The notes beneath the pieces were generated by a model. It had not been told where the DNA came from, did not search any database, and saw nothing but the letters and a program-made list of their open reading frames with translations. A stretch of 64,000 bases of DNA from an uncultured virus (IMG/VR IMGVR_UViG_3300009507_000010) (lineage: Duplodnaviria; Heunggongvirae; Uroviricota; Caudoviricetes): IMG/VR virus record IMGVR_UViG_3300009507_000010, one strand, 5' to 3'. A program made the position numbers and the translations under genes. Positions within the stretch are counted from its first letter, which is position 1, and every line of letters begins with the position of its first letter. Positions 42,490-55,088 of the stretch are shown here, one piece after another.

Positions 42490-42693
42490 ATGGACGACAA
42501 CGACACACACGATAAGTTAACGCAAATGTATTTAGAATACTTCAAGGCAAATGAAAAATTCGAAGCTCGCAACTCCGTACGTACTCATAGAGAAGTACGG
42601 AGATGCCTTCGAGACATGAGACAGCTTGCTAAAGAGCGTTCTGAAGAAATACATATTAAGCATAATACTACAAGAAAAACCAAGACCGACTAA
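42490..42693 (+). CDS. Small hypothetical protein
   Basis: 67-aa helical ORF in operon position after gp46. Confidence 0.7.
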   Translation: MDDNDTHDKLTQMYLEYFKANEKFEARNSVRTHREVRRCLRDMRQLAKERSEEIHIKHNTTRKTKTD

Positions 42694-42721: not shown

Positions 42722-43156
42722 ATGCATTGGACTTATGAAGGAAAACAAATTGAAGAACTGCCAGAAGGCTGCGAAGCATTTGTTTATCTTATCACAAACA
42801 AGACTAATGGCATGATGTACGTAGGCAAAAAACTAGCAAAGTTTAAGGTAACTAAACCACCGCTCAAAGGCAAAAAGAATAAGAGACGTTCAACAAAAGA
42901 AAGTGATTGGAGAGATTACTGGGGTTCCAGTGATAGACTTAACGCAGACGTTGAACGGTTAGGCGCAGAAAATTTCACAAGAGAAATATTACATATTTGT
43001 CCGAGCAGAGGCATAGCAAGTTATTTAGAGGCCCGCGAACAGTTTGAACGCAGAGTACTTGAAACAGATCAATACTACAACGGTATTATCAATGTACGAG
43101 TCGGCGGTTCAACTATTCTCAAAGAACATCTCAAAAACAATCCACCACAGGCATAA
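42722..43156 (+). CDS. Short GIY-YIG family nuclease-like protein
   Basis: Likely start ATG 42722 (MHWTYEG, 144 aa) rather than 42626; FVYLITN.TNGMMYVGKK, YWGSS, FTREIL, YLEAREQ, YYN motifs of Seg-like GIY-YIG domains. Confidence 0.8.
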   Translation: MHWTYEGKQIEELPEGCEAFVYLITNKTNGMMYVGKKLAKFKVTKPPLKGKKNKRRSTKESDWRDYWGSSDRLNADVERLGAENFTREILHICPSRGIASYLEAREQFERRVLETDQYYNGIINVRVGGSTILKEHLKNNPPQA

Positions 43157-43545
43157 TCAATACAGCACATAAGGTTAGCGGGCCAGTTTGTAATACCGCT
43201 GTGGAAAAGGTCCCCTGAGAAGGACACACGTAACATATTGATCGACTACCCAGAGGTAGGAAGCCATCAAACAAATTGGGCTCACTGGTTGATATAGATT
43301 GATTGCTGTCAGTCGAAAAACTGCAAATTACACATAAAAACTCTTTAGCAATAGGAACGAAGCGAGAGGTAGTTGGAAACAACGATGTCGACGTAGGTTG
43401 GGAAAGGTCAGAGCCCATTGTGTAGCAGTATAACAAACACCTACTTCCAATGTCTAGGCTGGATAAGACTCACATGAAGCTTTTCTTTTAGACGACGGGG
43501 CCGTAACAGGTTCCGTCTGACTGAAACGATCTACATGAAACTTAA
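43157..43545 (+). ncRNA. Candidate large structured non-coding RNA (family unidentified)
   Basis: No credible ORF in an otherwise tightly packed genome; many local hairpins (e.g. GTTG-GAAA-CAAC, CTACC-CAGA-GGTAG, GACGGGGCC-GTAACA-GGTTCCGTC) and several 6-7 bp long-range complementarities; boundaries approximate. Confidence 0.6.
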
Positions 43546-43546
43546 A

Positions 43547-43568
43547 CATTATTACATTCGTAATAATG
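43547..43568. repeat. Perfect 9-bp inverted repeat (possible terminator or origin hairpin)
   Basis: CATTATTAC-ATTC-GTAATAATG. Confidence 0.6.
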
Positions 43569-43636
43569 CAATTATATCATATATTAAATCATTTAAATTA
43601 AACGAAGTGATGTAGTTTGAGCGTTAGCGATAACTA

Positions 43637-43656
43637 AAATGAGCTTTAGCTCATTT
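43637..43656. repeat. Perfect 9-bp inverted repeat
   Basis: AAATGAGCT-TT-AGCTCATTT just upstream of the TAAATA at 43663. Confidence 0.6.
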
Positions 43657-43698
43657 CTAACATAAATACATTTAAGTAATAGCTTATTAGGACATCTC

Positions 43699-44733
43699 AT
43701 GAAAGTATTTGACATTGTAAACGAAACAAGATATCGAGTTAGTGAATTCCCTGGATTTGTTTGGGATGACGCAGCTGAGATGTTAACTCGTCCTGATGGC
43801 ACAACAGTAAAAGCTACTAGTGCTGATGATGCAAGAAGAGCCGCAAGAACCTGGAATGCCAGAACAGCTAGACTACAATCGCCAAATGCTAAGTGGAGAA
43901 ATTTTAAGCGAAGTGCTAATAATCCAGCTCTCAAGTTGGAAAACATGGATAATGCTTTTGCAAAATGGTCAACACGTTTACAACGTATACCTGGCATTGG
44001 TAAAATTAAATGGATATTCTTATTAAATGATCTGTTTGCTGATATGGCCGGGATTGCTACAGCCGTCATTGAAGAAGAAAATGAACGTGCAGAAGCAGCA
44101 GGCGAAGAATTTGACACAGTAGAAGTTACTAGTTTAATTTCAGCAGCTATATGGACACACCTTAAAGAAGTATTTCCTGCGATAGCAAGATCAGCAGCAG
44201 TGTTTATTACAACTATATGGGCAAGTACAAAAATATTGACAAGAGTTATTAACTCAATTATGTGGGTAGTTAGAGGATTTGGTCTTGCAACTGGACCTGG
44301 CGCTCCGATAGTTTGGTTAGGAACTTTTGCTGCACAGATTGGCCTAAGTTGGTTTATGACAACTGATTACGGCAAACAAAAAATGCGTGACGCATGGATT
44401 TGGACACTTGAAGCATTGCTTCCAGGAGTAATAGGTTTAGCAGCGTCTATAGCAGTTAAAGCAGGGTTCGAATCTGCTGAAGGACTGTCAGATGCGGCTC
44501 GTGCAGCTAGCGAAACTGTAGCAGATACACTAAAAACTCAAATGGAATCACAAGCTGAAACTATACTAAACGGTATGGATGAATTTGGTGGCGGAGTAAG
44601 TGAAGACGATGTTCAAGACATGCCGCAGGAAATTCAAGATAGACTTAATCAACAAGAACAACCAGATGCTGCACCAACTCCAGCAGCAGCAAATCAAAGT
44701 TTTAAAGACATTGTAGGCGCTGGTACTTGGTAA
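43699..44733 (+). CDS. Hypothetical late protein with hydrophobic segments (possible internal/ejected protein)
   Basis: 344 aa; TAAATA at 43663 and AGGA RBS; hydrophobic stretches (WVVRGFGLATGPGAPIVWLGTFAAQIGLSWF, ALLPGVIGLAASIAV); acidic tail. Confidence 0.7.
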   Translation: MKVFDIVNETRYRVSEFPGFVWDDAAEMLTRPDGTTVKATSADDARRAARTWNARTARLQSPNAKWRNFKRSANNPALKLENMDNAFAKWSTRLQRIPGIGKIKWIFLLNDLFADMAGIATAVIEEENERAEAAGEEFDTVEVTSLISAAIWTHLKEVFPAIARSAAVFITTIWASTKILTRVINSIMWVVRGFGLATGPGAPIVWLGTFAAQIGLSWFMTTDYGKQKMRDAWIWTLEALLPGVIGLAASIAVKAGFESAEGLSDAARAASETVADTLKTQMESQAETILNGMDEFGGGVSEDDVQDMPQEIQDRLNQQEQPDAAPTPAAANQSFKDIVGAGTW

Positions 44734-54581: not shown

Positions 54582-54671
54582 TAAATACTTTTGTTATAGA
54601 GATATCCTCTATTGCGAGGAATTATGCGGAAACCCGCCGCGTAGACCTAGAACGTCAAAAAGGAGAAAACA
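54582..54671 (+). promoter_or_regulatory. Late promoter plus structured 5' leader
   Basis: TAAATA 54582-54587; hairpins TCCTC/GAGGA, TATGCGG/CCGCGTA and GAC-CTAGAAC-GTC directly before the AGGAG RBS. Confidence 0.55.
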
Positions 54672-55088
54672 ATGGGACGTCCACTTAATAAAAGATACTT
54701 CGGAGAACCAACTGCCGGAGGAAACGAAATCAAAGTACAATTTCACAATGGAACAGCTAGTGTAAACGGCTGGATCGTTAAACAAAAAGGTTCAAAAAAA
54801 TTCTTATGCTCAGACGGAACTGTCGAAGCAACATGTGTACTAGTTGACAAAGCATCAGGCGCAGTAGCAGCTGGTGAAATGACTATTACAGTACTTGACG
54901 GTGCAACACCACGTCAGGTAACAAAGATTGCTGCACACAAAGTAACAATGGATAACGGTTTAACTATTAACTGGGACTTCACTGGAACTGGTGCAACTGT
55001 TGAAATGGAAGAAGCAGGCGATGATGCTGTTATCGACAATGTAGGCGTTGATGAAGACGACTTCGAAGGCGATGACCCAGCACCATAA
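54672..55088 (+). CDS. Hypothetical virion protein (possible head decoration)
   Basis: 138 aa, strong AAGGAG RBS, late promoter; MGRPLNKRYFG...GWIVKQKGSKKF. Confidence 0.6.
   Translation: MGRPLNKRYFGEPTAGGNEIKVQFHNGTASVNGWIVKQKGSKKFLCSDGTVEATCVLVDKASGAVAAGEMTITVLDGATPRQVTKIAAHKVTMDNGLTINWDFTGTGATVEMEEAGDDAVIDNVGVDEDDFEGDDPAP

Follow-up and report, generated by a model that had tools for sequence, protein, structure and literature searches.

The window analysed here is a stretch of 64,000 nucleotides from an uncultured virus (IMG/VR IMGVR_UViG_3300009507_000010; Caudoviricetes) and is contained in a 127,344-nt virus record (G000) that is 36% complete according to CheckV. Judged from its sequence, the source phage is a marine relative of the GAP32/PA5oct-type jumbo phages. 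Its nearest cultured relatives, based upon two proteins (36–52% identity), are PA5oct, Atu_ph07 and the GAP32/BF/121Q jumbo phages, and the gene content of G000 includes a T4-type portal, a late sigma factor, gp47/gp46, SSB, UvsX/Y/W and a DnaE-like fragment. The latter (188 aa; G000 125630–126196, L209:11631–12194) shows 52% identity to proteins from PA5oct and Atu_ph07. Elsewhere, approximately ten ORFs of 300–400 aa with CxxxCxxC-like motifs (radical-SAM-like by eye) lie beside a 3920-aa protein (G000 73642–85438), and a freshwater-2 RNA (RF02980, 52.1 bits) is found at window positions 54604–54674 (+), after the capsid gene and upstream of an ORF at 54672.

The element described in this work lies in the ORF-free gap 43157–43698. 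At 542 nt this is the largest such gap in the window, the second largest being 425 nt; that no gap in the window is larger had been noted in a first-pass annotation made from the sequence alone. The features of this locus are as follows (A1 is the alignment of homologues described below).

42490..42693, + strand: Hc1-like histone/nucleic-acid-binding ORF, 67 aa (ESM Atlas best matches PF07432, score 0.90)
42722..43156, + strand: stand-alone SegE-type GIY-YIG nuclease gene, 144 aa (PF19835, E 4e-33)
43149..43540, + strand: structured RNA, whole (A1 pair counts; ends inferred from conservation)
43162..43314, + strand: 5' domain, an exchangeable module (A1 pairing tests), with a pseudoknot 43162–67/43304–09 within hairpin 43297–301/43310–14; helices 43178–81/43196–99, 43200–03/43227–30, 43210–13/43222–25 and 43235–43/43287–95; and an optional helix 43246–50/43255–59
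43320..43444, + strand: core (A1 pairing and alignment-free test), with long-range helices 43320–24/43425–29 and 43329–34/43419–24, crossed with 43393–98/43439–44 (pseudoknot); an A-tract; hairpin 43341–49/43362–68 with an invariant GGAACGA loop; variable hairpin 43369–86; and hairpin 43399–402/43414–17
43472..43478, + strand: repeat copy 1 with the sequence ACATGAA, an internal element predicted to act as a guide to the template strand of copy 2 (parallel covariation)
43494..43522, + strand: last GC-rich hairpin (43494–517; 98.6% paired) and TGACT, the predicted partner of loop GGTCA 43406–10
43533..43539, + strand: repeat copy 2, ACATGAA, after a conserved ATCT; predicted RNA 3' end and hybrid start (parallel covariation)
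43541..43698, no strand assigned: AT-rich tract, 75% AT, a predicted DNA-unwinding/loading region (mini-hairpin count), with mini-hairpins ACGAAGT 43602–08, GCGTTAGC 43621–28 and TGAGCTTTAGCTCA 43640–53

Genes adjoining the RNA

The order gp46, Hc1-like gene, GIY-YIG nuclease gene and RNA is constant in the marine phages, and the 5' motif of the RNA, AGGCA, overlaps the final codons of the nuclease gene. The Hc1-like gene is present upstream of the RNA in 95 of 104 loci. The 67-aa ORF matched no Pfam or PHROG family; it is a syntenic neighbour of the element. The protein has a hypervariable loop between its helices, and the loop type loosely follows the repeat allele of the RNA.

The GIY-YIG gene is located immediately upstream of the RNA in 153 of the 154 motif-selected loci with sufficient flank (75/76 and 78/78). 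It is nevertheless a fixed neighbour in the marine phages rather than an obligate partner, because the RNA and the gene each occur alone. The RNA is found without the nuclease gene at locus L123 (CM E 3e-17), and no PF19835 gene was found in BF, PA5oct, 121Q or Atu_ph07. Conversely, no RNA was present in the bases read at nine of the 80 protein-selected nuclease loci, and Melnitz carries the nuclease gene with no match to the RNA. In a quick tree based upon 146 columns, nrdAB-linked nuclease copies lacking the RNA were the sister group of the window's nuclease clade (97% SH-aLRT), and the RNA types switched at least 25 times across this tree. At L007–L009, L011, L013, L017 and L019, a nuclease that is 85–88% identical to that of the window follows nrdA/nrdB in another phage type with no RNA after it, and the next ORF resembles an AdoMet decarboxylase gene. 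At another locus (L047:3420–4100) a duplicated nuclease 3' end and an unrelated antisense ORF piece are inserted between the gene and a type-D RNA. By analogy, the nuclease beside gp46/47 could have a role like that of T4 EndoII.

A pseudoknotted RNA fold supported by covariation

Homologues were collected from 80 loci via the nuclease protein and from 120+3 and 84 loci via RNA motifs, and alignment A1 contains 69 homologues out of 82 non-redundant type-A sequences. A model of 77 base pairs was 96.2% paired on A1 as compared to 85.8% after column shuffling, a control that ignores relatedness, and 33–44% in slid controls, which are lenient since the model was drawn from A1 itself. Double-sided (compensatory) changes were seen in 40 of the 77 pairs, many of which include G-U, and the covariation score was 0.312 versus 0.141 for shuffled columns and at most 0.065 for the slid controls. 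Independent pair types are so numerous and so widely spread (107 further types) that this structure is hardly in doubt. Additionally, the G-U pairs are consistent on one strand only, which indicates the plus strand and favours RNA. The interval 43149–43540 is thus a real, heavily folded and pseudoknotted plus-strand RNA structure. Folding of the single sequence was no better than chance (MFE -96.8 versus -94.1 +/- 4.8 for shuffles, z -0.56), an outcome that the first-pass annotation had named as unfavourable to it, and the structure rests upon covariation.

The first-pass annotation had proposed a large tertiary-structured RNA of no assignable family and had drawn twelve pairings. All of the strings that it quoted are correctly placed, and upon examination in A1 eight of the pairings hold and four fail. 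Strong support was obtained for ACAGCA/TGCTGT (43162–67/43304–09; 100% paired, 51 compensatory cells), TACACA/TGTGTA (43329–34/43419–24; 96%, 86 cells), GTCC/GGAC (43210–13/43222–25; 86%, 83 cells) and CTACC/GGTAG (43246–59; 89%, 53 cells), the last of these helices being optional. GTAGGT/ACCTAC (43393–98/43439–44) was 100% paired with two compensatory cells, the strands GACGGGGCC/GGTTCCGTC of the hairpin 43494–517 were 99% paired with six, and GTTG/CAAC (43372–83) forms a variable helix in which covariation is seen in the outer two pairs. Of TAGCGG/CCGCTG (43176–81/43196–201) the inner four base pairs stand, whereas the outer part does not, positions 43200–03 pairing better with 43227–30. The remaining pairings need to be redrawn or removed. 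ATCAA/TTGAT (43266–70/43289–93) was 81% paired and its TTGAT belongs within the helix ATATTGATC 43235–43/GGTTGATAT 43287–95, while CAGT/ACTG (43310–23) was 57% paired, the true partners being GATTG 43297–301 with CAGTC 43310–14 and ACTGC 43320–24 with GCAGT 43425–29. TGGGCTC/GAGCCCA (43277–83/43411–17) was 73% paired with no compensatory cells, its CCCA pairing locally with TGGG 43399–402, and GCCAGT/ACTGGT (43182–87/43284–89) was 70% paired. The loop 43271–88, supposed to pair with two distant segments, is a variable insert that is missing in many homologues, and the double pairing is not real. Of the two arguments given for the plus strand, that from G-U pairs is upheld, but the GAAA loop is not conserved. 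The overall proposal is borne out by the covariation, at least two covarying pseudoknots and the lack of an Rfam match; the homologue search and covariation analysis recommended in that annotation yielded 69 strongly covarying homologues, and the comparison with Rfam, which could have removed the novelty, left it intact. The features most telling on function, viz. direct repeats that covary in parallel and a downstream AT-rich tract of mini-hairpins, had been overlooked.

Two pseudoknots covary. In one, positions 43162–67 pair into the loop of hairpin 43297–314, and in the other helix 43329/43424 crosses helix 43393/43444. A third pseudoknot, between loop 43406–10 and 43518–22, is plausible, its columns being invariant or changed on one side in type A and its pairing amounting to 76% in type C. 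Helix 43320/43429 was also recovered in an alignment-free test, in which it could form in 82.5% of 80 sequences as compared to 59% (maximum 67.5%) with shuffled partners. The invariant GGAACGA loop (43354–43360) could pair with the invariant TTCC/TCG (43445–48, 43388–90) flanking helix 43393/43444, all of these columns being fixed. No U-tract followed the last hairpin in any of 145 loci.

A search of Rfam at gathering thresholds across the window detected nothing except for the freshwater-2 RNA at 54604, and with E-values up to 10 there was no meaningful match over 43000–43800, including to group I introns or RNase P; 16 loci of other subtypes also gave no Rfam match. ARAGORN predicted no tRNA or tmRNA genes in the window, blastn with the window RNA as query found no match in 50,697 phage records, and no description of the RNA was found in a search of literature available outside subscription.

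Direct repeats that change in parallel

Sequence conservation ends at repeat copy 2. A direct 7-mer stands on either side of the last hairpin, and the two vary in step; among the column pairs ranking highest in mutual information are 43478:43539 (same letter in 97%) and 43476:43537 (in 100%). The repeats could be parsed in 238 of 251 loci, corresponding to 145 non-redundant loci, using a pattern that fixed two of the seven positions. The 7-mers were identical in 136 of these 145 loci, in 13 alleles (mean 59.3 and maximum 75 in 2000 shuffles), and in 51 of the 60 loci with a non-majority repeat; of the nine discordant loci, eight have an A/T mismatch at position 7. Related phages share alleles, yet the presence of 13 alleles requires at least 12 joint changes or module transfers. 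The same rule, with other words, is observed in the BF family (CGTCAG in 8/8, CGTCAAG in 5/5) and in a chromosomal island (L386), where both copies read CGACAA.

Parallel identity of this kind does not arise from ordinary pairing within a strand, and it therefore calls for a partner located on the opposite strand or, alternatively, for a single protein that reads the two copies. The repeats have no same-strand partner, because an exact reverse complement within 900 nt was absent from 53 of 54 listed loci (those with non-majority repeats and the window). Mutual pairing of the repeats, or their pairing to a third segment of that strand, was rejected on this basis and in view of the non-palindromic alleles. 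A role as genome-wide regulatory boxes was likewise rejected, CT(C)ACATGAA occurring only at this site in 127 kb, as was a Box C/D or K-turn reading, since several alleles lack GA. The spacing of the repeats (53–68 nt) runs smoothly without helical phasing, and copy 1 always has one extra base ahead of the repeat, unlike duplex iterons. Of 139 loci with G at position 8 of copy 1, 137 carry A or G in copy 2, a weak trend in the direction permitted by rG:dT wobble. Copy 1 is complementary to the template strand at copy 2, and from the parallel covariation the two are predicted to pair.

The repeat type moderately follows lineage (AUC 0.75–0.82 for Hc1 and 0.69–0.72 for gp46, as compared to 0.55–0.58 for the nuclease). 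However, identical GIY-YIG, Hc1 and gp46 C-termini co-occur with different repeats (L058/L291); these three proteins are therefore excluded as readers of the repeats, while other phage proteins remain.

The downstream AT-rich tract

In 139 loci, the 160 nt following copy 2 contained 70% AT as compared to 57% in the RNA, and the tract of the window has 75% AT versus 62% for the genome. Mini-hairpins of the form C-GNA-G or C-GNNA-G, loops of the C-GNA-G type being extra-stable in DNA, occurred in these loci at 2.52 per 160 nt versus 0.20 in shuffled sequences, with 234 on the plus and 116 on the minus strand. The tract is the first-ranking mini-hairpin cluster of G001, and four of the five BF copies are in the top ten of the BF genome; the window's own tract is outside the top ten of G000.

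Distribution in marine phages, cultured phages and chromosomal islands

The marine phages carry variants of the RNA, which we label types A to E, at the same locus, and one subtype motif alone is estimated to occur in about 790 IMG/VR records. G000 and G001, both of which are genome fragments, contain one copy each by the profiles used. The 5' domain is exchangeable: types B and C have an unrelated 5' module, and one module is found with both A/B and C cores. Types A/B are linked to type C by nhmmer (E 2e-7 to 4e-10) and by CM in four of four cases (E 3e-4 to 0.02, the range within which the type-A/B CM reaches types C and D), and type C to types D and E by CM (E 4e-6 to 0.04); all CM E-values are rough. 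The same type-B locus is present on two large contigs of one MAG (L206 and L207) binned as Neomarinimicrobiota; both contain phage helicase and primase genes and represent phage contigs in a bin.

At the syntenic position in PA5oct and BF, gp46 is separated from the baseplate hub by a promoter and a long stretch poor in ORFs; such a stretch is missing from this locus in Atu_ph07 and Vibrio phage 2.275.O. Matches to the BF stretch extend to 62 phage records, with identities as low as 65%. Serratia phage BF contains five copies of the element, at 30, 93, 174, 259 and 335 kb, all on the plus strand, 63–85 kb apart and each preceded by a TG-N-TATAAT promoter; three copies are detected in PA5oct by BLAST. 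The text examined of the CBB genome paper does not mention such intergenic repeats (PMC5259590).

The relationship of these elements to the window RNA was assessed by a type-C CM built solely from 17 marine type-C sequences. In a blind search of 1.18 Mb its best matches, after its own type-C locus, were the BF copies at 335.7 kb (E 6e-4, full length) and 30.7 kb (E 0.085), followed by one chance match and then the window RNA (E 2). Unfiltered, it placed eight of nine BF-family loci as expected (E 4e-5 to 1.6). For the copy at 13 kb in PA5oct it reached only E 0.13, and the PA5oct copy at ncRNA004 was not matched. A descriptor of the marine RNA gave three matches in BF, including two of the five true copies (shuffles, 0–1 per genome), and no true copy in PA5oct. 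The BF family also retains a helix-TA-hairpin-AAT-helix motif with covarying strands, and the parallel repeats in 13/13. A sequence-only HMM gave no link to BF or PA5oct, and the type-A/B CM detected nothing in BF, PA5oct, G001, Melnitz and four RNA-less loci, its default filters also missing the known type-C copy in G001. As the type-A/B CM does not reach BF and PA5oct directly, the link to them is a chain via a sister subtype. On this evidence the window RNA is probably related to the BF elements and, with somewhat less confidence, to those of PA5oct.

One copy of the element is also carried by enterobacterial chromosomal islands (L383–L389; seven GTDB matches), six of which were matched by the type-C CM at the right place (E 0.03–0.28). 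In five of the seven, a tyrosine or serine recombinase gene directly adjoins the element, and a CI/Ner-like pair, a resolvase and defence genes (nSTAND3, Kiwa, Hachiman or ADP-ribosylglycohydrolase) are nearby. No replication-initiator family was found among the 21 island proteins scanned, and ParB-like genes were present in one island. The island copy had no match in 72,556 plasmids, so it does not represent a host-only ColE1-type replicon, and two E. coli chromosomes matched it over 27% of the query.

Promoters and expression

A TTGACA-N17-TATACT promoter is located between the nuclease stop codon and the RNA at L003, L004, L124 and L138 (and by eye at L024, L032 and L054), and the RNA can therefore be transcribed alone. 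No promoter was detected directly upstream of the RNA in the window. A minus-strand promoter-like site (43456–43427) that might give an RNA I-like antisense transcript was rejected, as it is not conserved by eye. Words of the stretch were found in 20 RNA runs from 17 studies, and the four runs that were mapped, out of 23, cover the element as contigs, indicating presence in RNA libraries and not strand, ends or level. The summed contig depth over the RNA exceeded that of the flanks in four of four metatranscriptomes, although contigs are not convertible to an expression level, and RNA-library contigs of relatives continue beyond 43540.

In PA5oct, the interval of ncRNA004, published solely as a transcribed ORF-free interval (Lood et al., 2020; PMC7318152 Table 1), overlaps the paralogue at the syntenic gp46/baseplate-hub locus. 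This paralogue is expressed early and at a low level (0.08/0.03/0.02% of phage reads versus 0.22% expected by length; PMC7318152 Table 1), 30- to >100-fold below the abundant ncRNA001/002. It has TTGACA at 246070–75, copy 1 (CATAAG) at 246666–71 and copy 2 at 246729–34, and the listed 3' end of ncRNA004 (246734) is the last base of copy 2. This agreement is suggestive, but it is one coincidence and RNA-seq boundaries are imprecise.

Possible function as a transcription-primed origin

The fold, the parallel-covarying repeats, the tract, the occurrence of single or multiple copies per genome and the independence from the nuclease are established. By analogy with known systems, the element may well serve GAP32/PA5oct-type jumbo phages as a cis-acting origin at which replication is primed by transcription (R-loop), with a folded pre-primer, a reading that we hold tentatively and at slightly less than even confidence. 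According to this proposal, RNA polymerase would transcribe the element, by read-through from the gp46 operon in the window and, in other copies, starting at a sigma-70-type promoter belonging to the element, and the folded body would keep repeat copy 1 unpaired. When the polymerase passes copy 2, copy 1 would pair with the template strand there and nucleate a persistent RNA:DNA hybrid, comparable to the rG/dC stretch of ColE1 RNA II. The RNA would be cut at copy 2, by RNase H or by itself, to provide a 3'-OH primer, and the opened AT-rich tract would fold GNA mini-hairpins on both strands, where the phage helicase and primase could load.

What suggests origin anatomy is the combination of a promoter or read-through, a folded RNA, an internal copy of its 3' end, no terminator, an AT-rich hairpin tract, evenly spread same-strand copies and early weak expression. 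The parallel repeats with their missing same-strand partner and unphased spacing, the occurrence of different repeats beside identical protein C-termini, the mini-hairpins on both strands of the tract, the weak early expression and listed 3' end of the PA5oct paralogue, the five same-strand BF copies, each with a promoter, and the islands carrying one copy without a replication initiator among the scanned proteins are counted in its favour, and precedents exist in the rG/dC requirement of ColE1 and the promoter-plus-DUE origins of T4, according to the consulted parts of these sources (PMC4412123, PMC5043065, PMC3016281). Fourfold-site GC skew showed no flip at the element in four genomes, and the minimum of the cumulative skew is about 5 kb upstream, coinciding with a gene-strand switch. 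The T4 precedent also leaves the ornate fold unexplained, because T4 R-loop origins need neither folded RNA nor specific sequence (PMC3016281, in the text consulted). Also weighing against the proposal are the nine loci with discordant repeats, the indirect link to the cultured phages, the missing gap in Atu_ph07 and Vibrio phage 2.275.O, the lack of a plasmid match, the position of the window's own tract outside the top ten of G000, the moderate tracking of Hc1 lineage by repeat type, and the extension of RNA-library contigs past 43540. An argument that the phage lacks its own replisome and hence uses a host-type origin was rejected, since G000 is 36% complete and relatives encode a DnaB-like helicase (4/5 records) and a primase (3/5).

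Other explanations account for parts of these results. In the main rival reading, the RNA could act in trans as an RNP, scaffold or decoy (GOLLD/ROOL-like or CsrB/ToxI-like), the repeats being twin sites of one co-evolving protein and the islands borrowing the RNA to jam or sense the phage. Such a protein would likewise cause the repeat type to track the Hc1 lineage, and it explains the twin sites equally simply; twin single-stranded motifs are typical of protein-titrating RNAs. The ornate fold with its invariant loops, the tracking of phage lineage by repeat type (AUC for Hc1 and gp46 above), the copies in islands with nSTAND3, Kiwa and Hachiman genes, and the contig depth over the RNA, which is not an expression level, are also consistent with it. 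However, the PA5oct paralogue is of below-average abundance and far under ncRNA001/002, a trans-acting RNA has no need of a conserved AT-rich DNA-hairpin tract, and identical neighbouring proteins occur with different repeats, and we consider this explanation unlikely, if deserving serious attention. A site acting solely as DNA, be it an origin or a packaging/recombination site, with iteron-like duplex repeats, single-stranded DNA structure and an incidental transcript, would suit the DNA-type mini-hairpins on both strands, and the consulted text on T4 describes iterons, of unknown role, at oriE (PMC3016281). Many conserved G-U pairs on one strand only, the unphased repeat spacing, and the element's own promoters, inserted or present directly upstream of it (L003/L004, BF and PA5oct copies), argue against it and make it the least probable of the readings considered.

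A ribozyme, or RNA-guided DNA cutting with a pseudoknotted core that either is itself catalytic or directs a nuclease (GIY-YIG in the marine phages), so that copy 1 as a guide directs a nick or cut at copy 2 and leads to recombination-dependent replication, is suggested by crossed helices in P3/P7-like order, by parallel covariation that looks guide-like and does not depend upon protein sequence, and by the nuclease directly upstream in nearly all motif-selected loci. It is improbable in view of BF, PA5oct and 121Q, which lack the PF19835 gene, of L123 with its RNA alone, of the closest nuclease relatives, which are nrdAB-linked in other phages with no RNA after them, of the repeated changes of RNA type on the quick nuclease tree, and of the absence of a group I or RNase P match. 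A mobile nuclease-RNA cassette was rejected, as the synteny is fixed. Lastly, the element might control transcription of neighbouring genes in cis, as a processive antiterminator like put/EAR or as a leader or 3' stabiliser. The BF copies are promoter-proximal, co-directional with most transcription and followed by same-strand genes in four of five cases, but the first downstream ORF runs convergently in 37 of the 100 marine loci, as it does at the syntenic copies of BF, GAP32, CBB and 121Q; in these four phages the upstream gene is divergent, and there is therefore no mRNA to stabilise. We regard this possibility as very improbable.

A bolder form of the origin reading is a superfamily of ornate phage RNAs, each with an internal 7-nt guide that is programmable and directed at its own DNA, in which the RNA would open the duplex, process its own 3' end and prime replication without an initiator protein, and which defence islands would have stolen in order to replicate upon jumbo-phage infection. 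We view this form as a speculative and rather unlikely one. If true, it would represent a ribozyme-like, RNA-specified replication initiator.

Comparison with known systems and significance

The element resembles ColE1 RNA II in being a promoter-driven, folded non-coding RNA of several hundred nt without a terminator at the origin, in which an upstream stretch of RNA matches the template strand further down, an rG/dC stretch in the case of ColE1 (PMC4412123, consulted in part). It differs in showing no sequence or Rfam similarity, in having a short variable 7-mer in place of a G-run and a pseudoknotted core, and in its phage and island context with no plasmid match; no conserved antisense RNA I was seen, and priming by the element is a prediction. 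With T4 oriF/oriG it shares a promoter and a downstream AT-rich element (predicted unwinding) and the presence of several such sites spread over the genome; the phage encodes UvsW, and relatives encode helicase, primase and RNase H (CBB, in the text examined of PMC5259590). In contrast to the T4 origins, which according to the consulted part of PMC3016281 have no common motif or folded RNA, it consists of a conserved 300–600-nt fold with repeats.

The likeness to GOLLD, ROOL and HEARO RNAs suggested by the first-pass annotation holds for size and complexity and for nothing beyond these. GOLLD, ROOL and OLE RNAs are similar in size, many helices, pseudoknots, phage carriage and unknown function (PMC12286853), whereas the element has no Rfam match at gathering or E<=10, is weakly expressed in PA5oct and is followed by a conserved DNA tract. 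Like HEARO/omega RNA (IS200/IS605) it is a structured RNA adjoining an endonuclease gene, but this gene is GIY-YIG rather than HNH/RuvC, the synteny is that of a fixed core-genome locus and not of a transposon, and RNA and gene each occur alone. It is unlike a group I intron in that there is no Rfam match up to E 10, the upstream gene ends at its own stop codon and there is no 3' exon; the crossed helices 43329/43424 and 43393/43444 recall P3/P7, but the G-binding site and P4–P6 motifs were not recognised by eye. The GCTCTG..GAAA..AGA hairpin motif of the window RNA recurs in PA5oct ncRNA004, which also has a hairpin enclosed by two direct repeats as well as the tract; the two are linked through synteny, shared motifs and a succession of models, with no direct match. 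On the features tested, the element is outside the ColE1, GOLLD/ROOL, HEARO and group I families and is most likely R-loop pre-primer-like.

These results describe a hitherto undescribed large structured RNA family of jumbo phages with many marine carriers. Few large phage RNAs have a function that can be tested, and the literature searched gave no account of how replication starts in GAP32/Rak2/PA5oct-type jumbo phages. Because related copies are present in cultured coliphages and PA5oct, the function of this family can be tested in laboratory strains. If the origin reading proves to be wrong, an undescribed large RNA family remains; if it is true, the element would provide a natural RNA-specified origin, a target for cryo-EM and a clue to how defence islands lacking Rep might parasitise jumbo phages.
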